This document shows, in pieces, positions 2,526 to 42,000 of a stretch of 64,000 nt of DNA (position 1 is its first letter; every line of letters begins with the position of its first letter). The position numbers and the translations under genes are program-made. The DNA comes from Cladosporium halotolerans. Its lineage: Eukaryota. The stretch is taken from contig NW_027191452.1 in the NCBI RefSeq assembly GCF_011745625.1, positions 744,001 to 808,000 on the forward strand. The letters run 5' to 3'. Under the pieces are notes generated by a model. It was not told the DNA's origin. It did no database searches and saw only the letters and a program-made list of their open reading frames with translations.

Positions 2526-3867
2526 ATGCCCGCTTCCGTCACCAGCAGCGATGACGGCGAGGTGAGTTCCTGATGAATTCGACAAGCCGAATTCCCGCGC
2601 AACTGACACTCATTACTAGAATGAGAGCCTGATCGTCGACATCGATCAGCTCCAATCGCACGGTAGGCAGTACTGCCCTGGAGTAGCCACTTCATCTGAC
2701 AGTTGGCTTAGGCATCAACCAGGCCGATATCATGAAACTCAAAGCTGCCGGCTTCTACACGGTCGCGGTGAGCGCCATCAGGATCTTTGTCGTCTCAAGT
2801 TCGTGGACTGACTGTTGAAGCAAGGCTGTCCACTCGCAGCACAGCAAACACCTACTCAAGATCCGTGGATTCTCGGAAGTCAAAGTTGAGAAAGTAAAAG
2901 AAGCCGTCAGGAAGTGTCTGGTATGAGTTGCCGTCGCTAGCCTGCTCTCGAGCTCATGCTAACCTGCGCACGCTTCACAGCCAAATGGAGGCAGCTTCAT
3001 CACTTCAGCCGACCTCGCGCACATCAGAAAGCGCTGCTTTCGCATTTCGACCGGAAGCAAGCAGTGGGACTCTATTCTCAACGAAGGCTTCCAGTCTTGT
3101 AGCATCAACGAGGTCTATGGAGAATTCAGTAAGCCTCCTGTTCGCATGTTGGGCAATGGCGGAACTAACCTCAATCAGGGTGTGGCAAAACGCAACTCTC
3201 GCACACCATGGCTGTGATCGCACAGCTACCGAAAGAGAAAGGCGGAGCGGAAGGACGGGTCGCGGTCATTGACACTGAAGGCACGTGGCGACCTGAACGA
3301 ATCGTCCAAATATCTGAGCGTTTTGGAAGTTTGTCATCCTCACCGGTTTTACGGCGATACCATTACTAACTATTGGGAGTCGATTCAAATGCAGCAAACG
3401 AGAACATCCTCTATGTCCGTGCCGAGAACAGCGAGGATCAGCACGAGCAGTTGTGCGGTCTTGCCGAGCCATTTGCCTCTGGCCAGTACCGTCTCTTGAT
3501 CATCGACAGTATCATGACGCATTTCCGCAATGACTTCCATGGTCGCGGAGAATTGAATGAGCGGCAGGGCAAGCTTGGCCAACATCTCCGCAAACTGAGC
3601 CAGATGGCGGAAGAGTTCAACATCACGGTCCTTATCATCAATCAGGTACAATCAGACCCAGGAGCGAGCGCCCTGTTCGCCAGTGCCGATGGCCGTAAAC
3701 CTATTGGAGGTCATGTCCTTGCTCATGCTTCGACCACACGCATCTTGCTACGCAAAGGCCGTGGTGAAGAGAGAGTCGCAAAAGTGATTGATTCGCCTGA
3801 TTGCGCCGAAAAAGAAGCCACGTATATCATCACCACTGGCGGAATAAACGATCCAGACAAGGCTTGA
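2526..3867 (+). CDS. DMC1: Meiotic recombinase Dmc1 (RecA/Rad51 family), 7 exons
   Basis: Spliced translation gives [16 protein letters not shown], Walker [14 protein letters not shown], Walker B LLIIDS and [35 protein letters not shown] and GGHVLAHAS are Dmc1-type rather than Rad51-type. Confidence 0.92.
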
Positions 3868-4070: not shown

Positions 4071-5415
4071 TCACCCAAGATAATACACGGTGCCCTCGAA
4101 AAGCCTCCGGGCTGTACGGAAGACCGTGACCTCCTCTGCTTCTCCATCCGTTCCCAGTCGAATATCCACGTCCATGTCTCCGCCCGGATGCCTCAGCTTG
4201 ATCTGCTCGAGATCGAGCGGACCATTGGTGCCCAATCCAAGCTGAACCTTCTCAGAGATTCGGGATCGATTGCGGATAGAGTGAGCCAGAGTTCCTTCAG
4301 TGCACGCTGCTGTTCCCAAGCACACGGCGCCTGTCAATTGAAGGCTTCCGTGGACTTTGCCCATCGAGTAGGCGACAACCTCGACGTCGGGTGAGGGAGC
4401 GCCTTCTTGTGATTCAGGCTCCTTGAGAATCGCAATTTTGGGAGTGCCTCTGGTGAGCGCTGCCTTCTCGACACTGCTAGCCAAGCCCATGAGCACCGCT
4501 GCCTGTCTTCGAACACTCTCGATGAACTCGATAGACTCTGCTGCACCGGGACCTTGTTCGCGGAAGCAGTTCGGCAGTGAAAGCTCGTTTACAAACACGA
4601 AAGGGTTGGCTGCGTCCACTATGCTGACTTGAACGGGAATGGGCGTGGGCTCAGCCGCGGTCTGACCGAAGATGATGTCCGTGGGACGACCGGTTGGGAG
4701 AAGCTTTCCCGTCATCGCACCAGAGGGTTTCGAGAAGGCCATCTTCACACGGCTGCCCATCGATCGAAGCCCGGGTAAGATGCAGTCGCCGTCTTCTAGG
4801 AAATGCCCTTCCTCATCAACTTGCACATTCTCAATCAAGAGTGAGTTTGTGTTTGTGTTGAAGACCCTAACTTGAACCTGAGAAGACCATTGATTAGCAT
4901 TCTGGGGACTTTTCCCAAACTGAGCATAGCGCATATTTCGTAGCAGTCGGAAACCACTAGCACAAATGCCCGTAGTGACACAATGCGGAATCTGATTGAC
5001 TTACTTCTTGCTGGCCAGGCTTAGCTTTCACTATTCCTTCATCGACTGCAAAAGGGCCAACACCGGATGCGATGTTACCGCAGTTACCAGTCAAATCGAG
5101 CTTTGGGCTCCCGATCGGTACTTGAACGAACGTGTAATCGACGTCAACGCCAGGACGCTGTGATCGTGCGACAACAGCAACCTTTGAGGTTGTAGACGTT
5201 GCTCCACCGATGCCGTTTAGTTGTTTAGGATCGCAATCATACGAGCCCATAATGCCAGTGATGATTGGCGTCCATTCATCTTGGCTCTGGGGTAGGTCTT
5301 GTCGGTGAAGGTAAAGACCTTTAGAAGTACCGGCTCTCATCCATACTGCCGGAAGTGCCTTACGCCTCTTCGTGACCTTGGTAGGGTTTACAGCGGGTGC
5401 AACGAAGCCAGGCAT
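4071..5415 (-). CDS. PrpF/DUF453-family isomerase (aconitate/methylaconitate delta-isomerase-like), 2 exons
   Basis: WMRAGTSKG, GGATSTTSKVAVV, catalytic GNCGNI, VDAANP, SMGKVH and RTARRLFEG motifs; exons 5415-5005 and 4877-4071, intron GTAAGT...CTAAT...CAG. Confidence 0.9.
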
Positions 5416-5632
5416 GATGGGATAGTAATCGATTGGTATGCGTGGAATCACAACTGCTTCGATGTGTCGGATTGCGGACTTGAACATGACTGTTCGCAAG
5501 CCAAAGAAGATATTTGCCGAGGCTGTACCCCATTTTAATGATGCCAGTCAAAATACCCACTCGGTTACTCCGTTATGTTCAGGCTCGTGGATGTTTGGAT
5601 GCTTCGTAATGGAGGCCATGGCGGCGGATTTC

Positions 5633-5655
5633 CCGCGGAACATCAAATTCCGTGG
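5633..5655. promoter_or_regulatory. Putative Zn2Cys6 binding site CCGCGGAACATCAAATTCCGTGG (CGG-N11-CCG) in the PrpF/MFS divergent promoter
   Basis: 21/23 identical to the reverse complement of 12017-12039. Confidence 0.7.
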
Positions 5656-5900
5656 AATTCTGTCGCCCGAACATTCATCCAGGAAGAATTACTCTCCCAA
5701 AGTCAAATCACGGCCGACGCTCCCGCCCGGAAATCGGCTCCAAGGTTCGAGATGATGATACTGCGGGGCAAAGATGGAGATGACCCCATGGGCGGGTATG
5801 TCAAGCCTCTTGATAAAGGCTTGGAGATTTCCAAGCGTCTTGGGTGTCTTGGGTATCTGCACAAGTCGTTGTGATTGTCAATCGCCTCTCGCCATACGCC

Positions 5901-7671
5901 ATGCCAGCTCGACACGCAGCAGTTTTCGTGTCAGACACGCCTGTTCCGAAAGATGTGTACAACAAACAAGTCTACTTCACGGCTCTCGTGGCTTCCATGG
6001 GAGCCTTCATTTTTGGTTACGACCTCGCTTTTATCGGAACAACGATCACACTTGAACCCTTCAAGAGAGACTTTGGGTTGCTGAACGCCTCCGAAGCCAC
6101 TTCCGATGGCTTTTCGGCGAACATTGTCTCCCTACTGCAGGCTGGCTGCTTCTTTGGGTCATTAGCTGTTGCACCATTGGGTGACAGGTATGGCCGCAAG
6201 ATTTCTCTCATCATTGCCGGCATACTATTCTGCATCGGATCTCTCATGCAAACGGTCAGCTACGGACTCGTAGCTGTCATGTTTGTCGGTCGTGCCATTG
6301 GTGGTCTGGTAAGTACATCCAGCTCTCCTTCATCTCAGGAGTTGACATATCCCATTGGACGATGCCAAATGCATCGCGTCCGAGGTTATCGACTAACACG
6401 TCTCGCAGGGTGTTGGTCTCGCAAGCGGGATCGTACCGATGTACGTAGCAGAGCTGTCGCCGCCGGCCATCAGAGGTCGTCTCGTCGGCATCTACGAGAT
6501 TAGTGTGCAGACGGGCACATGCATAGGCTTCTGGATCTGCTACGGCGTCGAGGGGAACATGGCCAAGACTTCGGCACAATGGGTGACGCCTTTCGCAATC
6601 CAACTGATTCCTGGTGGTCTTCTGGTAATTGGCATGTTCTTCGTGCCAGAATCGCCTCGGTATGTGTGTCCGCTGCGACCAAAAGGAAGTTCAAGTGCTG
6701 ACAAAATTGGAACAGGTGGCTTGCTCGGTATAAATCGTATGGTGCTGCTTCCAAGACGCTTGCCATGCTGCGAAACCTCCCTGAAGATCATCCGTACCTG
6801 CAAGAAGAGCTTTCGCATATCATGGCGGCCGTGGAAGATGAGAAGAATTGCCGAGCCGACAGCAATCAGTGGACCGAGCTCCTTGCGCCCAGCAACCGCA
6901 AGCGCGTTATCCTGGGTATTCTCATCTTCATCTTCATGCAATTTGCGGGATCGAATGCAATCAAGTGAGTACTCTTTCACCCTCTTAGTGAGACCCGATG
7001 CTGACCGTGCCAGCTACTACTCCCCACGCATCTTCAAATCCGTTGGCCTTACGGGATCATCCACCAAGCTGTACGCCACTGGTATCTACGGCATCGTTCG
7101 CCTGGTCTGCGTCATCATCGCCATGAACTTTGTCGTCGACCGCTTCGGACGAAGGAATATGCTCATGGGCGGTGCCGCCGTGATGCTTGTCGCCATGTGG
7201 TTCATTGGAGCATACATTAAAGTCGCCGGTCCCACCGAGGGCAGCGCCCTGACCGCCGGAGGTTACGCAGCCGTAACGTTCATCTACATCTTCGCCGTCG
7301 GATTCTGCTTTTCGTACGCCGGCATCCCTTGGATCTATTGCGCCGAGATCTTCCCTCTGCGCATCCGTGCGCTGGGCATCGCGATTTGCACGGCAGTCCA
7401 TTGGCTCTTCAACTTCGTCATTGCGCGTGCCGTGCCCTACATGATCTCCAACATCGGGTACGGCACGTATTTCTTCTTTGCGAGCTGCATTACGCTCTCG
7501 ATACCTTTTGTCTATTTCTGCTTGCCTGAGACAAAAGGTTTGTCGTTGGAGGAAATTGATGTGATTTTCGGCGCAGCAGCCCCACCGCTGACTGCAGAAG
7601 TCATGCTCGAGGAGGGAGAGAAAGTCTTGGACTATCCTAAGGCAGCGCACGTTGAGAAGAGCATAGAATAG
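5901..7671 (+). CDS. MFS sugar-porter-family transporter, quinate permease (QutD)-like, 4 exons
   Basis: N-terminus PVPKDVYNKQVY...FGYDLAFIGTT resembles QutD; DRYGRK, PESPR, DRFGRR and PETKG motifs; introns about 6309-6408, 6660-6715, 6965-7013. Confidence 0.88.
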
Positions 7672-7739
7672 GATGCTTTGCAGTCCTTACGAAATTGATG
7701 AAAGCTTCATGAACTCATATTTACACTGAGCAACATTTC

Positions 7740-10104
7740 TCATGGCGGTGATATGTTCGAATAGTACCAATCTGACGTTGACGCATTGAAGCCAAACAAA
7801 GTGTCGTCAAACATGTTGTACCCGCCGTTGAGTAACGCCCCTTGCTCGTTGGTAAGCATGTTGCTGTTCGAACCGTTCGACATATTCATCGTTGAGGGAG
7901 TCATTGGCATGTAGGGATTTGATCCCTGCATCTGTTGCTCTTGCATGAAGCTGTGAATGATCGTGTCCACATCAAGATCGGGAACAAATTCGCCAGCAAC
8001 CATGGTTGGCTCTGGATTCATTCCATTCTCGAATGCCTGCTGCTGCTGCAGAGTTGGCACGGATGGAGCTTGGTTCACGACGCCTCCGTCCCTGTTGCTC
8101 GACGATGTGCTGGAAGCTTGTTGATGCGTCGTGGAACCTCTTTCTGGGGAAGACATTCTGTCGGCGTCCTCGAGGTCTATCGAGATACCCATGTGCTTCA
8201 TTAGACCTTCGATGACGATAGACGCCTTGCGGACGGCGTAGTTTGTTTCAGAGTTCTGGCTGAAGACCGACAAACATGTCCGCAGGTGCTCATGCGCTTC
8301 AGAATGCGATGTTCGAGTGGCAGCAATCCGTACATGGATCGTCGCGGCGACATAAGTGGCGTAAGATATAAGGTAGGGAGCTCTGCCAATTGAGAAAGCT
8401 TTGTCGTAGAGACGCACAAGCTTGACAATGTTCATGGCCGCCTCTGCGCATGCTGCGAATGACGACTTGGAAGTGGAGGGAAGAGTCAGATGCAGATGGC
8501 TATCGGCAACTAAGGGTCGATGGAGAAGAACTCTCAAAGCATTCCACATAGCTTGTAGTGAGAATACTTGAGGAGGCGGGAGGTGTTGGTGGGTGCCATT
8601 GCTGTTGACGTCGATGGTCAGGTGTTGAGGGAGATTCGTCTTCCATTCCAGCATACGTGCGTCTAGGACGTCGAGGTCCTGTATCAGGTTTTCTGTACTC
8701 CTCTTCTCTTTGCCCTCGCAGTACATTCGGTCCAGAACATCGTGAAGAATGATGCAGAGTTTGCAAAGCTCTTTAAACGTTGATACACTGTAACTTGGAG
8801 ATCCAGGGTACTTGGTTCCGCTAGTGTAGGCGAAAGGGTACCAGTACTCTAGCTCCTCGTAGGTGTCCATGAAGTTAATGGGTACTTGGCTGTCGATAGC
8901 TCTCAGGCTGGCTGGACGGCCCTGGTACAACGACTGCATTTTGTCGACAACGAATGCTGACCAGTAGACTAGTAGACGTTAGTGCGTCAGCTATCACTCA
9001 ACCATCAAGGGACCTCACCTCGTCGTCGTATCTCGAGGTCCTCTTCCGAGAGCCGTTGCATGTTTGGTAGCATAGTCGCATCAACATGTAAGCCTAGATC
9101 TACAAGCATTCTGAAGGCTGTACCAGCGTACACCCAAGCAGCACTTTGCTCGTCACCAAGCGCAAACAGAGAATTACTCATCTGTAGCAATGCCTGTATT
9201 GTTGTGATCTCGCTATGGTCCAACGCCTGTCCTAGAAGATCGCGTACCCTGTTGCGAAACTGCCAGCCAGCTGTCCTGACATCGTTCGGGTCTTTCCGTA
9301 GCTCCAGTCTTGGACTGAACTTGGAAGCACCGTAGAATATCGCGTTCAACAGTATCTTGGAGAAATAAGGACCGTTGCAGGCCATGTCACGCATGAAAGC
9401 GGGGCGATACGTGACAAGAAACGAGTGGTGTTGGCGATTCCAATGAAGGTTGAGCAGATGCCGGCCCAGCTCAGGATCTACACCGTCAAAATCGAGTTTA
9501 CCAGCGCGAGCGTTAATATCCTCGTACTGTCGCTGCTCTGCTGCGGCGGCCACCAATAGCTTAGGCATCCATGCCTCTCGCTCTTTTGACAGCCATGAAC
9601 GCGACCGCTGATTGTCAGGCACAGCATTATCGAATAGGGTGCTCGTGGGGCCGTGATACGTTGATGTCCCTCCAACAGACCTAGGTGTCTCGACTGGTGT
9701 AGCACCGGGGGTATGGTGTTCGTGTGCTGAGTCAGGCATACTAGACAGTAGATCGACGGGACGATCGGCGGGGCTTTGGTCTGAGCTGGCGGACATCTGC
9801 ACATCTGGAGTCGCTTCGGTGTGCTGCGATGCTTCTGTAGAGGATTGCTCTCGCAGACGCCGATTTTCTTCCATCAACTGCTTGATGGCTGCATTTGTGG
9901 GCCTAGTCTTACGGCGGAGACCCTCGAAGACACATTCTTGGTCGTAGATCTCACAATTCTTACATCGTGGCCGCTCTCCCGTACATTTCATCTACGATCA
10001 TCAGCGGGAGTAGGCATGGCTTGGTTGCAGACGAGGCGAACCTTGCGTTGCCTGCAGTAGGTGCAGGCCCGCTGAGCACGTGGCTGACGCTTTTCGGAGC
10101 CCAT
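7740..10104 (-). CDS. Zn(II)2Cys6 transcription factor with fungal-specific middle homology region, 3 exons
   Basis: Spliced ACTYCRQRK-MKCTGERPRCKNCEIYDQEC binuclear cluster (intron 10041-9992); AFRMLVDLGLH...EIRRR segment; second intron about 9018-8969. Confidence 0.9.
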
Positions 10105-10827
10105 GCTTTGTGGGGACGTGATGATTGATGACTCGCTATGCCACGGATGGTGATGAGATCGCTGTGGTTTGAAGACGGCGGAGCAAGCGGCGAGGCAGAG
10201 GGACATCCGCGGTCAAAAGCGAACCCCTCCGCGGTCGATTAAACTTCCAGCTATCGGGACGGGTCCCGACGCCATGCCGCGGCATCTCAGATGCCGGGGC
10301 GGACACGCCGTAGGATCATTGCGGAGCCGCTGGTGGAATGCAAAGCCATCATTAGTGGGCACGGCAATTGTGTACGGACTGCTTTGGTAGGGTAATCTTT
10401 CTCGCTAGGATGAATCCGAATGCGTTCATTCTCCGCCCGGCATTCCAGACCTCTACCTTGTGCGACTGTCGGTTGTGACTTGCAGCTCAGCTTGACTCAA
10501 CTTCTAGGTTCTCATGCCATGGCGCGAGTCATTCAACCCCAAGCGCAATTTGCCACCGACATCACGATCTGTAACACGGGGATCATGGGTGGTATAGTAT
10601 TTGTACTGCACAATTACTATTTACCACATTGATGTGTTAATTCAGCAGATCACGCAAATGCTGCCTTGAAGTATGTGAGACGATTAGTCGCAAATGGACG
10701 TTCGAGGCTCATTGTACTAAATGTATTACCCATGGACGCACTAGAACAGCGTCATGTCATCGCTTTCGCCATCTGGATCTTCAAAATTGAAATTATATTC
10801 GCGCGCTAACGACTCATGGTATCTGAT

Positions 10828-11727
10828 TTAGAAAAGAGTAAGAACTTTCTCGTAGATGGAAAACACAATGCCTCCCGAGAGCACCAGTCTACCCAGACGC
10901 ATGGTGCTCCCACTCCAGAACCCGCGCATGCCCGCATCCCGGAATGTGCTCCTGATGGCGGACATGAGCGTTGCTCCTTGACTACTCTGCGAGCGAGTCT
11001 TGACAGTGTCGAACGGCTGAGTGGCGTAAACAGTCAAGCATCCAGCGGCCGCTCCCATCGCGAAGGTTTCCACCGTGCTTTTGGGAGCATGGCCGACACG
11101 AGCGGCGTATTGTGTTTTGAGCGCATTGTAAGATCCCATTCTGACGGCGGAAGTTGCTGATTGCTTCAAAGTGGTGCTGACGAGGCCTCTGTACAAGCCG
11201 AGGATGCCTTGCTCTCTCAGTAAGATCCCGACAGCGTGAGGACTGGATCGGAATCTTCTGGCTCCTTTGGCATCGTCGATCAAAGCAGTCTTGATGCGTT
11301 CCGTAGGCGTGACAGCCAAGATTGATTCGACCGCACCAGCTGCCATACCGGCGACGATCCCCCGGGATGTTGACAATTGTCCACGCTCATCTACGAGCTG
11401 GGCCTTGATGGTGTCGAAGGCGAGGAAGCGAACACCAGCTTTCATGGCCGTGCCGACGACCAGCGTACTACATCCTGTGTAGATTCCAGAGAATCCTTCG
11501 GAGCTTATCGTTCCTCGCAATAGTTGAAAGGCGTTGCCTTTTCCGGAGTTCAACTGTGCTCGAGTTTTTGCATATTCAAATGGATAAGTAATAGTGGCCT
11601 CGCAACCTCCTGCAACACTTCCTGCGAACAGCGATGCAAGTGGAGAGACCTGTTTCTTCTTCGGTTGCTGCTGCTGAGTTGCAATTTGCAAAGGGGAACC
11701 CCTCAATGGTGCTGTAGCTGTTTGCAT
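10828..11727 (-). CDS. Mitochondrial carrier, tricarboxylate/citrate transporter type (Ctp1/MttA/Mtt1-like), intronless
   Basis: Three PX[DE]XXKT signatures (PFEYAKT, PTERIKT, PFDTVKT); KAGVRF and LAVTP typical of tricarboxylate carriers; 299 aa. Confidence 0.88.
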   Translation of the reverse strand: MQTATAPLRGSPLQIATQQQQPKKKQVSPLASLFAGSVAGGCEATITYPFEYAKTRAQLNSGKGNAFQLLRGTISSEGFSGIYTGCSTLVVGTAMKAGVRFLAFDTIKAQLVDERGQLSTSRGIVAGMAAGAVESILAVTPTERIKTALIDDAKGARRFRSSPHAVGILLREQGILGLYRGLVSTTLKQSATSAVRMGSYNALKTQYAARVGHAPKSTVETFAMGAAAGCLTVYATQPFDTVKTRSQSSQGATLMSAIRSTFRDAGMRGFWSGSTMRLGRLVLSGGIVFSIYEKVLTLF

Positions 11728-12016
11728 TTTGAGTGAATTGACAGTTGCGTCGGCGCCGATTTGTCTGCTTGAAACCTGATGACAGTGTCTACAATGCGGC
11801 TGATTTGAACAAATGTGAAATTAGTTTTGTACTTCACCCTTTTCGACGATCGACCCATTATCAGATCTCCATGCCTTCTACACCCGGATATTACGGATTT
11901 TCGTCTGCCTCGTCTACTGCACCCACCGAGTGCTGTTCTGACATTGTTCCGCGGATGAGAATACACTATGGTCTTACTAATGCCCGACAACGATGGTAGT
12001 GGAGCATCCGTGTGTA

Positions 12017-12039
12017 CCGCGGAATTTGCTGTTCCGCGG
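12017..12039. promoter_or_regulatory. Putative Zn2Cys6 binding site CCGCGGAATTTGCTGTTCCGCGG (CGG-N11-CCG) in the carrier/MFS divergent promoter
   Basis: Reverse complement CCGCGGAACAGCAAATTCCGCGG matches 5633-5655; extra half-site TGTTCCGCGG at 11945-11954. Confidence 0.7.
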
Positions 12040-12363
12040 CCTAACGTGCAACACCCAGCCATCGGCAGACGCCGCGCCTAGAGCAAAGTTCTCTCGCCAA
12101 GTAACCTTACACTCGGTAAGTCACCGAAACAGACGGTTTTTCTTAACGTGGCGTGAGCGGGGAAGCCCCATGGGGTATGCCATGTGGGTTCTATCGCTGG
12201 TCAAGATTCCTTGGCGACAATGGTTGGCAAGAGTACTTGCGGGAGATGGGTAGCCGCAAGAGAATACTAAAGGGATCTGAACATCCTCGAAGATGAGGAC
12301 CAGAACTCCATCACCTCGCCACTGAGTCACAGCAAGGCATTACCTTGAGAGTCCACTATCACC

Positions 12364-37926: not shown

Positions 37927-38868
37927 TCACACCTTCCATGGCCCACCCTCTTTGAGGAACTGAGACCAGTTGATCAAGTCAGCCCCCTCGACCAGCCACT
38001 TGTTGCTCTCGGCTTGTTTCTTCTCAGTCCCCAGACCAAAGTAGCTCGCCTCGCCGATCCACAGGAACATATCCGTCAAGTCGTCACGAATCGCCTCCGG
38101 CAAGAACGAAGCAAACACCTCGCCCGAGATGGACTGGAAGCGCACCTGCTTGCCGAGAGCTTCGCCCGCTTCGGCCACGACTTTCTTCGGCGTCGTCCAG
38201 CAGCTGACGCCCTGGACCTCGACGCCGTTGGCCTTTTCTCCAGCCTCGAACAGGCCCATGATGTACTTTCCGGAGTCCCTGCGAGGCTCCAGCAGGGGCA
38301 CGGCAATATTCTCGTCAGGGTATGGCACGGTCAAAGTCGGACCTTGGCCGTGATCCTGGATGAGCTTCTTCATCTCTATGAGGAACATGGCCGGCATGAA
38401 GTAGCTGGCGATCATGTCCTTCTTCTCCGCCTCGATGACCAGTTCGACCTCCGCCTTGCCGTCAAAGTGCTCGACAAGCGTATGCTTGCCCTTGCTCAGC
38501 TTGCTGACGTGCGGCAGGCTGCTGAAGACGAAATGCTTGACGCCCGCCGCCTGGCACGCGGCGAAGATGTTCTTGCCCTGCTGCATTTCGCGCGCCTTGG
38601 ACATCACGGCCCAGAAGTCCGTGACGCCGAAGACGCCGTAGGAGCCGGTCACGGCGGTCTTGAGAGATTCGACGTCGTCCAGCTCGGCTCGGACGACTTC
38701 GACGCCACGCGAGGCGAGCGCCTTCGACTTGCCGCTCGATGGGTCACGAGTAATGCCGCGGAGGGCGTATTTGGCTGACAGCTCGGGGCGGGCCAGGACG
38801 GTGTCGATGATGCTACCTCCCTGGTTGCCGGTTGCGCCGAAGATGGTGAGAAGACGTTTGGAAGACAT
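37927..38868 (-). CDS. NmrA-like atypical SDR/NAD(P)-binding protein, intronless
   Basis: IFGATGNQGGS, GVTDFW, GVKHFVFSSL and HFDGKAEVE. Confidence 0.9.
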   Translation of the reverse strand: MSSKRLLTIFGATGNQGGSIIDTVLARPELSAKYALRGITRDPSSGKSKALASRGVEVVRAELDDVESLKTAVTGSYGVFGVTDFWAVMSKAREMQQGKNIFAACQAAGVKHFVFSSLPHVSKLSKGKHTLVEHFDGKAEVELVIEAEKKDMIASYFMPAMFLIEMKKLIQDHGQGPTLTVPYPDENIAVPLLEPRRDSGKYIMGLFEAGEKANGVEVQGVSCWTTPKKVVAEAGEALGKQVRFQSISGEVFASFLPEAIRDDLTDMFLWIGEASYFGLGTEKKQAESNKWLVEGADLINWSQFLKEGGPWKV

Positions 38869-39395
38869 TTTATGGCTGTGTTTCGTTTTGTGTTTTAGAG
38901 GAGTTGATTTGAGGCGTACAGTTCAAGCTGAAGTGGCTGGATGTCTGGTTGGCATTCAAACGTCCTTGTTCCACGTTCTTATACCGCCCAAACCCTCATC
39001 CGTACTGCATAGCAAAGGTACTCCTTCGCGACCCCGCAACAATCCAGCTCCGGCGTACCTAAGCAATTGTCATCGAATCCGAAGCTGCAGCCAAAGATCC
39101 CGGCGTGGCCTGGAGTCCGGTATTGTGGCTTGCCAGGCTGCAGGTGGCTTAGTCACACACACAAAGCAGCTCTCCCCGGACTTTCAGGCGAAGCGAAAGT
39201 GCGAGCTGATCTTCGATCTATCGCAATACTCGCGCCCGGATCCTTGGCCATCAGGTTATCATTATGCAAACGTTGATAATCTCCGCTAATTAACATGGAA
39301 TCTAGGACCGTGGCAATCTCACTGCAGAAGCGGTGGTGCGACTCCCGGCTTACGGCACGCATGACTGCTCCGTTGTGTGTCAAAATCAGAAGCGT

Positions 39396-40670
39396 CTACA
39401 GGCCCATCAACTTCGCCATACGCTCTGCCATGTCCTCCGCGAAAGCTTCGTCATTGATTGCCCGCTCGTCCTTCACGACAGAAACATCCGAAGCCTTCAA
39501 GCCGCTGTCAATAGCCCCGAACAAAGCTTCGTCAGCTTTGGCATCGTAGAAAGGCGCGCCGGGTGTCGCGATCATACTGACACCGCCGGCAGGAATCACG
39601 ACCTGCACCTTCTCCGGCGCCTTCGCGAACTTTGTAATCTTCTCGACGATAAACTCCCCGATCGCCTTAGACTCCTCAGGGGACGTCCGCATCAGCGTGA
39701 CCACGGGGTTGTGCTCGAACAGCTGCCTCGAGCCATACTTCTCCGGCACCGTCGCTCTCGGCCCAAAGTTGACCATGTCCGTCGCACCCACAGAGATGAT
39801 ATTGGGCAGCCCGGCTTTGAGCGCTGCTTCCAGTCTCTTAGGCCCGGCGCTCATGTTGCCACCCATCAGCACGTCGCAGATCTCCGTCGTCGTGAGGTCG
39901 AGGACGGCGTCCAGCTCGCCTTCCTCTACCAGCCGCTCCATCGCTTTGCCACCGTGCCCGGTGCAGTGAAAAACGAAGCACTCGATCGGGTACTTGGCTT
40001 CGAGGTGCGTGCGAATTTTGTCGACGCAAGGAGTCGTGACGCCAAACATCGTCACGCCCAGTCTCTTGCGCAGTTGCTTGTCGCCGATGCTCTGCGCCGC
40101 CAAAGAGCGCTCGTAGACCTGCGCCATGCCGGCGATGGCGCCCGCGGCGTTCGCCAGTATTCGCTTGAGCAAGCTGTTCGTGCCCGCGATGTCGACGACC
40201 GAGTACATCATTGTGATGTCCGTCTCGCCGACGACGGGTCCGGTGTCGCCCGAGGCGCTCGTAGAAACCATCAGTTTGGGGAAGCCCACGGGGAAGACCT
40301 CCCTCATGACGGCCGAGGCGAGAGACGTCCCGCCCGTGCCGCCCGCGGAGACGACGGCGTGTAATGCTTGAGTTGGGTCTTTGAGGCCATTTTGGTAGAG
40401 TCCTCGTACGCAGTTGATCGCGCACTGGATCATGTATTTTATGACTTCGCCGCGGGGTAGGGTGGCAACGTCTTGCTTGCTGGAGGGCGCGTATTTCGAG
40501 GTCAGGACATCTTGTGGGATTGTAATGTTGGCATCTTTGACGACTGATCTGCCGACGTCGATGAGGGAGACTTGAAAGTTGTCTTTGCTGCTTTCCAGTA
40601 TTTGTGATCTCATATAAAGGAGCTCTTGGAGCTTGGTATCGCATGTGCCGAGGATGACGATGTGAGGCAT
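39396..40670 (-). CDS. UPF0261 / Tm-1-like ATP-binding domain protein, intronless
   Basis: LGTCDTK, GGTGGT, PVGFPKLMVST, YSVVDIAG, TMFGVTTPCV, FHCTGHGG, DLTTTE, DMVNFG and HNP..TLMRT. Confidence 0.9.
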   Translation of the reverse strand: MPHIVILGTCDTKLQELLYMRSQILESSKDNFQVSLIDVGRSVVKDANITIPQDVLTSKYAPSSKQDVATLPRGEVIKYMIQCAINCVRGLYQNGLKDPTQALHAVVSAGGTGGTSLASAVMREVFPVGFPKLMVSTSASGDTGPVVGETDITMMYSVVDIAGTNSLLKRILANAAGAIAGMAQVYERSLAAQSIGDKQLRKRLGVTMFGVTTPCVDKIRTHLEAKYPIECFVFHCTGHGGKAMERLVEEGELDAVLDLTTTEICDVLMGGNMSAGPKRLEAALKAGLPNIISVGATDMVNFGPRATVPEKYGSRQLFEHNPVVTLMRTSPEESKAIGEFIVEKITKFAKAPEKVQVVIPAGGVSMIATPGAPFYDAKADEALFGAIDSGLKASDVSVVKDERAINDEAFAEDMAERMAKLMGL

Positions 40671-40758
40671 ATTGTTACTGAGGAGCAGGTTTGTCACTAA
40701 CAATTATGAGCTTACAAGCGGGCGGCCGAACTCTCCAGAGGAACAAGATCTCAGCTTG

Positions 40759-40801
40759 ATTAGACGGCTTGAAGTTATATTAGACGGCTTGAAGTTATAT
40801 T
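40759..40801. repeat. Perfect 20-bp tandem duplication ATTAGACGGCTTGAAGTTAT x2
   Basis: Read directly in the UPF0261/TIM-barrel intergenic region. Confidence 0.9.
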
Positions 40802-41101
40802 GGACACAGTTGGTACCTGGTGTGTTGTTTGCTCGAAATGTGGAGAACAATGTTGATCGACGACTTGACTCCACACATCCGCAGGCACCGAGCTGGAGGG
40901 GCATTGCGTCAAGAATCGTGCCACAATTCTTCCTCCGGATAATCGGCATAGAGCATCAATCCAACCATCTTCTCCCAGCATTGACTTTATTCGTAGGTCA
41001 AGCATTCTCAAGCTTGAAATCCAAGTCCTTCAGCACATCATATCTCCTAGCTTGAGAGTAATCCGTCCCGGACCGAGCTCGGCCTAGCTAAGACAATCAC
41101 C

Positions 41102-42000
41102 ATGGCTCCGCCAACAGACCGCAAGGAAATTCTTGCCGGATTCAAAAAGCAGATCCAGTCAGGCAGTGCCATCGTGGGCGCAGGAGCAGGTAGGATCCAT
41201 GAAAATGAACAGCGCCGTGCAACGCTCTAACGACGCATCCAACTACAGGCATTGGTCTCACAGCCAAGTCCGCAGAAGCGGGTGGTGTATCCCTCATCAT
41301 CATCTACAACAGCGGTCGCTTCCGCATGGGAGGCCATGGCTCACTAGCTGGTCTCATGCCTTACTCCAATGCGAATAACGTCGTCGTTGAGATGGCGTCG
41401 GAGGTGCTGCCTGTCGTCAAGCACACGCCTGTCATCGCTGGTGTCTGCGCCTCCGACCCGGGCCGTGACATGGGCCGGTTCTTGCGCGAGTTGAAGGGAC
41501 TCGGCTTTGCGGGCGTTCAGAACTTCCCTACCGTCGGCTTGATCGACGGCAACTTCAGGGCCAACCTGGAGGAGACCAATATGGGCTTTGACAAGGAGGT
41601 TGAGATGGTGAAGCTGGCGAGTGAGCTGAATCTCTTGACCACGCCCTACGTCTTCAACACCAAGGAGGCGAAGCAGATGGCCGAGGCCGGTGCGGATGTG
41701 ATCGTCGCTCATATGGGGTTGACGACCTCAGGAACCATCGGCGCGCAGACGGGCAAGTCTCTCGAGCAGTGCGTTGACGACATCAAAGCCATTCAGGCGA
41801 CTGCCAGAGAGGTCAACCCTGATGTTATCGTTCTGTGCCATGGTGGGCCTATCGCGAAGCCTGAGGATGCGAAGTTCGTGCTGGAGAAGTGCAAGGGCCT
41901 GCATGGGTTCTACGGTGCCAGCAGCATGGAGAGGCTACCGGTGGAGGATGCGGTTGCTGGTGTGGTGCGTGAGTTCAAGGGCATTTCCATCTCGCAGTGA
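41102..42000 (+). CDS. TIM-barrel signal transduction (TBST / PEP-hydrolase-like) protein, 2 exons
   Basis: IVGAGAG-IGLTAK across intron 41190-41248; [34 protein letters not shown] and GASSMERLP. Confidence 0.92.

Follow-up and report, generated by a model that had tools for sequence, protein, structure and literature searches.

Could a few short and nearly identical DNA elements, each placed between divergently transcribed genes, tie an entire fungal gene cluster to one regulator? The question is raised by a 64-kb stretch of DNA from Cladosporium halotolerans (contig NW_027191452.1, positions 744,001 to 808,000; hereafter 'the window', with coordinates counted from its first letter). Five neighboring genes in this window encode a PrpF-family isomerase, two transporters of the major facilitator superfamily (MFS; one sugar-porter type and one ACS type), a Zn2Cys6 regulator, and a mitochondrial carrier resembling the tricarboxylate carrier CTP1. 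The original prediction, made from the letters of the window, pointed to two 23-bp elements with the arrangement CGG-N11-CCG, one in each divergent promoter, and proposed that they are the sites through which the cluster's own regulator controls all four structural genes. In the following, a 'dyad' is a pair of hexamers of the CCGCGG/CCGYGG type placed 17 bp apart, such that their inner triplets form CGG-N11-CCG.

A rereading of both strands together with a repeat search bears out the two elements, their extent of identity, and their placement between divergent start codons. Dyad 1 (5633..5655, CCGCGG-N11-CCGTGG) resides between the start codons at 5487 (minus strand) and 5901 (plus strand), 146 bp from the ATG of the PrpF gene and 246 bp from that of the sugar-porter MFS gene, and orthologous dyads are present in the PrpF promoters of related loci. 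Dyad 2 (12017..12039, CCGCGG-N11-CCGCGG) resides between the start codons at 11727 (minus) and 12364 (plus), 290 bp from the carrier ATG and 325 bp from that of the ACS-type MFS gene. The RNA contig that reaches furthest 5' ends at 12161, which leaves at least 122 bp between it and the dyad upstream. The first dyad equals the reverse complement of the second at 21 of 23 positions, and the repeat search returns the two as a 23-nt inverted pair with 91% complementarity. This likeness is confined to the 23 bp, and the flanking sequences show no match. A 20-mer pattern allowing up to three mismatches finds only these two elements in the 64 kb, where 0.01 matches are expected (100 shuffles, none of which yielded two or more).

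Two aspects of the original prediction need to be amended, the first of which concerns what the element is. All three dyads that we recognize in the window do have the CGG-N11-CCG geometry, but this bare pattern is no more frequent than chance in such G+C-rich DNA (26 observed versus 34.6 +/- 6.0 in 200 block shuffles), and the significant unit is instead a pair of hexamers held in a fixed 17-bp phase. The extended arrangement, hexamer-N11-hexamer with hexamers of the CCGCGG, CCGTGG or CCACGG type, is rare, with three occurrences in the window against 0.16 expected. Likewise, seven of the 34 CCGCGG hexamers in the window are concentrated in the three cluster promoters, which total 1,775 bp (Poisson p = 1.6e-5). 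Taking in both halves of dyad 1, a chain of hexamer-like sequences (CCATGG, CCGCGG and CCGTGG) proceeds at exact 17-bp steps from 5616 through 5633 and 5650, spanning 5616-5672. The same three-hexamer chain recurs in a related locus, L023, whose dyads at 11304 and 11321 are arranged such that the third hexamer is the right half of the dyad at 11321.

The second amendment concerns the number of sites. Although the two dyads are indeed located in the two divergent promoters that serve the four structural genes, they are accompanied by a third dyad and three single hexamers. Dyad 3 (10277..10299, CCGCGG-N11-CCGGGG) lies in the promoter of the regulator gene itself, where 173 bp separate it from the ATG and the RNA contig end at 10160 is downstream of it. 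The same promoter carries single CCGCGG hexamers at 10207-10212 and 10229-10234. The remaining single copy, the octamer TCCGCGGA at 11948..11955, is in the promoter between the carrier and ACS-type MFS genes, 62 bp from dyad 2, and is identical to the canonical pleiotropic drug response element (PDRE) as given in the accessible part of 10.1101/2023.08.11.553033. The dyads all lie upstream of the RNA contig ends.

The original prediction named absence of the motif from orthologous promoters as one observation that would speak against it. Instead, we find the motif conserved in orthologous promoters of several lineages. Metagenome contigs scanned with an alignment of the isomerase yielded 51 loci, among which L001-L019 are orthologs with 57-70% identity (about eleven distinct sequences falling into four deep groups), and loci of the L023/L024, L030, L031 and L026 types are more distant (39-51%). 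A pattern defined beforehand from the window only, CCGCGG-N11-CCGYGG on either strand, was applied to 13 other, non-redundant loci, where it matches 10 times in 15,764 bp of cluster promoters (nine of 24 promoters, representing seven of the 13 loci) and not once in the 110,044 bp that these loci contain beyond the promoters (Fisher p = 9.5e-10). The remaining 282 kb of loci contribute only three duplicates in L024 and one match in a bacterial locus. With a relaxed pattern chosen post hoc (hexamer, N11, CCG), there are 21 matches in 11,316 bp, distributed over 18 of 20 promoters, compared to four in 141,981 bp elsewhere. The proposal that the sites belong to the cluster is therefore borne out, in that they are cis-elements specific to it in the DNA examined.

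An unbiased screen gives the same answer. When all 6-mers in the cluster promoters of eight lineages are ranked against a first-order Markov expectation, CCGCGG is first among 2,051 words, with 38 occurrences versus 3.24 expected and representatives in all eight lineages (p = 2e-27). CCGTGG is fourth (28 versus 6.9), preceded by CCGCGG and words that overlap it. Every one of 27 promoters examined has at least one such hexamer, with 86 in 17,539 bp overall, and among hexamer pairs within 60 bp of each other, 18 are exactly 17 bp apart whereas any other distance occurs at most three times. Alignment of 25 dyads yields the consensus CCGCGG-N11-CCGYGG with a partly conserved spacer (18 of the 25 have T at spacer position 5, 21 have A at position 7, and 19 have T at position 10), although the orientation of each dyad was chosen by a script that favors such columns. 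Even L023, whose isomerase is only 43% identical, has four dyads, which precede its isomerase, carrier, and an MFS gene, and dyads are located in the promoter of the regulator gene in the window, in L007 (position 777) and in L010 (position 4169).

Other conserved blocks are evident in the promoters of the window, L004, L007 and L010. Blocks of the CCCCATGGGG / CCATGTGG type are found near the ACS-type MFS and isomerase sides (12155-12200 and 5600-5632 in the window), and a GATAAAGGCTTGG block precedes the ATG of the sugar-porter MFS gene by approximately 100 bp (5812-5826), which is possibly a core promoter element or a site for a second factor.

A particularly informative aspect of these loci is that the five genes are retained but reordered, as determined by tblastn with the exons of the window. 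The gene order of the window is also that of L010. In L004, the central block composed of the sugar-porter MFS, regulator and carrier genes is inverted, such that the ACS-type MFS gene is paired with the other MFS gene, and the carrier gene with the isomerase gene. The order and promoter pairing are different again in L007, L016, L023 and L031. Despite these changes in order and pairing, dyads remain before the same five genes, and thus the motif not only is present in several lineages but follows its genes through rearrangement. We conclude that the dyads are conserved control sites, specific to the promoters of this cluster in the DNA examined and fixed in their spacing.

The rearranged loci have peculiarities of their own. 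In L004, positions 2310-2466 and 9180-9336 form a 157-nt inverted repeat of 97% complementarity that includes a dyad and flanks the inverted MFS-regulator-carrier block, which suggests either that the two promoters recombined and thereby inverted the block or that gene conversion took place between them. A 12-kb DNA contig from run X16, which is 95-99% identical to the window, joins position 11668 to position 12336 on opposite strands. The promoter segment carrying dyad 2 thus appears to be inverted in a close relative, or else the joint may be an assembly chimera. In L007, approximately 2.8 kb between the ACS-type and sugar-porter MFS genes (L007:4406-7211) match none of the five genes of the window.

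Which protein might recognize these sites? The cluster does contain a Zn2Cys6 regulator, as the original prediction presupposed, and splicing of its gene unites the two halves of the zinc cluster to give CX2CX6CX6CX2CX6C. The DNA-binding domain (DBD) of its Cladosporium ortholog P0241, which is 79% identical to exon 2 of the window regulator, finds its best match among solved structures in Gal4 (E = 1e-4), followed by Lac9, and both of these proteins bind N11-spaced sites. Residues 12-69 of P0241 align without gaps to Gal4 residues 8-65, beginning at the first cysteine and continuing through the linker into the coiled coil, an alignment that fits the N11 spacing of the dyads. In the spliced DBD of the window regulator, the number of residues from the last cysteine to the start of the PTNAA helix is the same.

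The variation among hexamers likewise favors the inner triplets. Of 19 hexamers with a T or A substitution, 16 leave the inner CGG/CCG intact (binomial p = 0.002, though the cases are not phylogenetically independent). The clustered regulator is the most likely binder, since in all DNA examined the motif is confined to promoters of the cluster, including the regulator's own. The third dyad and the single hexamers in the latter promoter further suggest autoregulation.

Taken together, these observations lead us to propose, with a probability of about 0.68, that the two 23-mers and the third copy are upstream activating sites of the five-gene cluster that are bound by its Zn2Cys6 regulator. We infer the identity of the binding protein, activation rather than repression, and autoregulation from the patterns described above. 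A regulator homodimer would bind each dyad through the inner CGG/CCG triplets, using its zinc cluster, linker and coiled coil in the manner of Gal4, and the outer bases and nearby single hexamers would add affinity or recruit further dimers. From the two bidirectional promoters, the regulator would switch on all four structural genes together, and from its own promoter it would reinforce its own expression.

Several observations weigh against this proposal. Fifteen of the 24 promoters outside the window lack the strict pattern, and the relevant promoters of distant loci where a regulator gene lies beside a PrpF gene (L031; L026/L027/L050; L033/L035) have no N11 dyad, with L031 having single hexamers and one N12 pair. 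The 20.8 kb of L023 contain its four dyads but no regulator homolog. Because spacers are not the same in all lineages, the identity of 21 of 23 positions in the window, spacer included, may reflect concerted evolution rather than constraint, and the two promoters of L004 do share their dyad as part of the 157-nt, 97% inverted repeat. In addition, the outer CC and GG of the dyads are conserved, with G at each of two unascertained outer positions in 21 of 25 dyads and C or T before them in 22 of 25, which is not predicted by a pure Gal4-type model. Finally, the RNA evidence from all four runs consists of contigs, which show transcription and splicing rather than expression levels, co-regulation or transcript starts, and stretches left uncovered by X16 and X20 carry no weight either way.

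The conserved outer bases invite an alternative in which the same regulator binds differently. Each CCGCGG could be a zero-gap everted repeat of CGG that accommodates its own dimer, and each dyad would then represent two such sites phased by 17 bp, possibly with cooperative binding. This would account for the hexamer itself being the most enriched word, for the single hexamers in all 27 promoters, for the conservation of the outer CC and GG, and for the chains of three hexamers, each 17 bp from the next, that occur in the window and L023. There is also precedent among zinc-cluster proteins, since Pdr1, Pdr3, Pdr8, Rdr1 and Yrr1 recognize CCGCGG according to the accessible part of 10.1101/2023.08.11.553033, which describes this mode of binding as being without a solved structure, and NirA binds CTCCGHGG (PMC5348485, in part). 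Several homologs of the regulator have even been named 'nit-4-like' automatically. However, the rigid 17-bp spacing, the sparing of the inner triplets by 16 of 19 variants, and the gapless alignment of the DBD to the N11 binders Gal4 and Lac9, which are its best matches, all argue otherwise, and we regard hexamer-by-hexamer binding as unlikely. We therefore favor a single Gal4-like dimer on each dyad, with the outer bases adding specificity.

It is also conceivable that the dyads are bound by a Zn2Cys6 protein whose gene lies outside the cluster, such as a global regulator of the Gal4/CLR-2 type or another kind, and that the clustered regulator acts differently or on other targets. Bare CGG dyads are common to many members of this protein family, Neurospora CLR-2 binds CGGN11CCG as Gal4 does (PMC4620465, in part), and L023 retains its dyads although its 20.8 kb include no regulator homolog. 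Against this stand the confinement of the extended motif to cluster promoters with no match in 110 kb of flanking DNA, its presence, in three lineages, upstream of the clustered regulator gene itself, and the adjacency of regulator, isomerase and carrier genes across many ascomycetes, which together make a foreign regulator improbable. More remote still, and in our estimation scarcely credible, is the notion that the repeats are chance occurrences or by-products of rearrangement, such as inverted duplications at inversion breakpoints, with no regulatory role. The inverted repeat of L004 does carry a dyad and does flank a block oriented opposite to its counterpart in the window, and the opposite-strand joint in the X16 contig also speaks for this reading. 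Yet the likeness in the window stops at 23 bp, chance would supply only 0.01 such matches, and the hexamers and their spacing are conserved across lineages in which spacers and flanks have diverged. Binding of the dyads by the cluster's own regulator remains our preferred explanation.

The boundaries of the cluster and the structures of its genes can be read from coding frames, Pfam matches and RNA contigs. The five genes are bounded by Rad51 (3370-3867) and Rrp7 (14648-15703). The PrpF-family isomerase gene (4071..5487, minus strand; Pfam PF04303, 1.6e-37 and 3.2e-41) has two exons separated by a 127-nt intron at approximately 4876-5002, whose joint is represented in RNA run X17. Its TSK and GNCGN motifs align to those of solved PrpF-family isomerases. 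We take the lysine of the former and the cysteine of the latter to be catalytic residues, and a Lys-to-Met variant is among the entries for the solved relatives. The sugar-porter-family MFS gene (5901..7671, plus strand; Pfam Sugar_tr, 2e-76; TIGR00879, 1.6e-48) has four exons as read from its frames only. It is followed by the regulator gene (7740..10104, minus strand), which matches Pfam Fungal_trans and has introns at 8969-9018 and 9992-10041 that are removed in a spliced RNA contig from X17 (7686-10160), and whose orthologs carry PF00172.

The carrier gene (10828..11727, minus strand) is a single exon whose product matches Pfam Mito_carr (1e-53) and resembles CTP1 and other tricarboxylate carriers of mitochondria, and its homologs are named tricarboxylate or citrate transport protein. 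The ACS-family MFS gene (12364..14066, plus strand; 2.A.1.14-like; Pfam MFS_1; TIGR00893, 4.8e-25) has five exons and four introns, and its messenger RNA is represented by a fully spliced, 100% identical RNA contig from run X20 (12303-14113) and by a longer one from X17 (12161-14101). Both MFS proteins thus match uptake-type families, TIGR00893 being the D-galactonate transporter subfamily (2A0114) and TIGR00879 the sugar porters. The best protein matches come from Cladosporium, Aureobasidium, Zasmidium and Zymoseptoria, a distribution that indicates an ascomycete and probably a dothideomycete. According to locus tags, the isomerase, carrier and regulator genes lie at intervals of two to three genes in Aureobasidium, Zasmidium, Cladosporium, Cercospora and Pyricularia, and fused gene models (regulator with PrpF, or regulator with carrier) reveal their adjacency in Fusarium, Beauveria, Paramyrothecium and A. 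melanogenum.

Elsewhere in the window, the region downstream of the cluster includes a gene for a large hybrid histidine kinase (20033-23771; HisKA, HATPase_c, Response_reg). An adjacent divergent pair at 39396-42000, comprising a UPF0261 (Tm-1-like) gene and a PEP_hydrolase-like gene, and an NmrA-like gene at 37927-38922 are unrelated to the dyads. A cluster of CCGCGG hexamers at 40142-40450 was considered as a further target and rejected because it lies inside the long UPF0261 coding frame.

What might such a cluster accomplish? Its sole enzyme is the isomerase, whose family also comprises aconitate isomerases, and the other products are a paralog of the tricarboxylate carrier, an activator and the two importer-type MFS proteins. 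This composition fits the uptake of a tricarboxylate requiring only isomerization before it can enter the tricarboxylic acid (TCA) cycle. The uptake and use of a plant tricarboxylic acid is a probable role of the cluster. More speculatively, and at somewhat less than even odds, the pathway would consist of the import of a plant tricarboxylate such as trans-aconitate, its isomerization to cis-aconitate, and passage of the product into mitochondria. The bacterial tarR-tarAB system carries out uptake and isomerization of trans-aconitate (PMC11495376, in part), and Ustilago employs a PrpF-type isomerase, Adi1, together with the carrier Mtt1 for biosynthesis, the reverse of assimilation (PMC4720413, in part). 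Against trans-aconitate as the substrate, the nearest relatives with solved structures are isomerases of 3-methylitaconate and of oxalomesaconate, and the summed NCBIfam scores fall below both equivalog cut-offs.

More tentatively, we speculate that the dyad serves as operator for an undescribed ascomycete regulon, conserved widely, for the assimilation of plant trans-aconitate. Such a regulon would be a eukaryotic counterpart of tarRAB and would comprise two plasma-membrane importers, a cytosolic isomerase that makes cis-aconitate, a dedicated CTP1 paralog that delivers it to mitochondria, and a self-inducing activator with Gal4 geometry. The palindromes, located in oppositely oriented promoters, may in this case also act as inversion points that reshuffle promoter sharing without breaking regulation, as the inverted repeat of L004 would illustrate.

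That a Zn2Cys6 activator should control a pathway from CGG dyads located in bidirectional promoters is a textbook matter in fungi, and so the mechanism itself would not be surprising. What the analysis adds is a regulatory code that can be written as a sequence, CCGCGG-N11-CCGYGG, and that belongs to a five-gene cluster whose regulator, isomerase and carrier genes are adjacent in many ascomycetes, plant-associated genera included. Grasses accumulate trans-aconitate, and one hypothesis to emerge is that fungi living on grasses assimilate this compound by using the cluster. The dyads also offer a natural case for how flanking bases and the phasing of hexamers give specificity among zinc-cluster proteins.

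Comparison with known systems places the cluster and its sites among several partial likenesses. The itaconate cluster of Ustilago maydis (adi1, mtt1, itp1, tad1, cyp3, rdo1, ria1) similarly brings together a PrpF-family isomerase, a CTP1-like carrier, an MFS protein and a regulator (PMC4720413, in part). However, Ustilago Ria1 is a helix-loop-helix protein for which a different motif has been proposed (PMC6064134, in part), whereas the regulator described here is a Zn2Cys6 protein with a Fungal_trans domain, and we have rejected membership in a Ria1-type regulon because both regulator class and motif differ. No Tad1-like lyase, CadA/PrpD-like protein or P450 was detected by Pfam in 19 open reading frames (ORFs) between 1 and 22 kb and in 33 of the 62 ORFs of at least 170 amino acids between 14 and 64 kb. 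An itaconate biosynthesis cluster of the Ustilago or Aspergillus terreus type was accordingly also rejected, given that there is no decarboxylase in the ORFs scanned and that Rad51 and Rrp7 bound the cluster. Its MFS genes, moreover, belong to uptake-type families.

A closer functional analogy is offered by bacterial tarR-tarAB, in which a substrate-specific activator, a PrpF-superfamily isomerase (in that system an aconitate isomerase) and an MFS importer are likewise encoded together (PMC11495376, in part). The bacterial system differs in having a LysR regulator, an operon organization and no organelle step, and the accessible text of the paper that describes it contains no word beginning with 'fung'. 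In the literature that we searched, which consisted of main texts outside subscription journals, there was no description of this ascomycete cluster, of its motif, or of fungal trans-aconitate assimilation.

Regarding the sites themselves, the CCGCGG hexamer, which with its T and A variants is the most enriched word in the cluster promoters, is also that of the PDRE bound by Pdr1 and Pdr3, and one copy in the promoter shared by the carrier and ACS-type MFS genes is a full PDRE octamer (10.1101/2023.08.11.553033, in part). The NirA site CTCCGHGG occurs, as our dyads do, in a bidirectional promoter of a pathway cluster, namely that of niiA-niaD (PMC5348485, in part), and automatic homolog names hint at a relationship of the regulator to NirA/NIT4 as proteins. 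PDRE and NirA sites are single or irregularly spaced, whereas the hexamer pairs of this cluster are fixed at 17 bp. The closest resemblance is to the upstream activating sequence (UAS) of Gal4 and Lac9, which has inverted CGG triplets with 11 bp between them, functions in bidirectional promoters such as that of GAL1-GAL10, and is bound by Zn2Cys6 proteins. The zinc cluster, linker and coiled coil of the regulator's ortholog match Gal4 residues 8-65 without a gap. This same geometry is used in filamentous ascomycetes by Neurospora CLR-2 (PMC4620465, in part). The genes controlled here are unrelated to the galactose or cellulose utilization governed by Gal4 and CLR-2, and the predicted sites are further distinguished from those of Gal4, Lac9 and CLR-2 by half-sites that are extended to CCGCGG/CCGYGG and accompanied by single hexamers.

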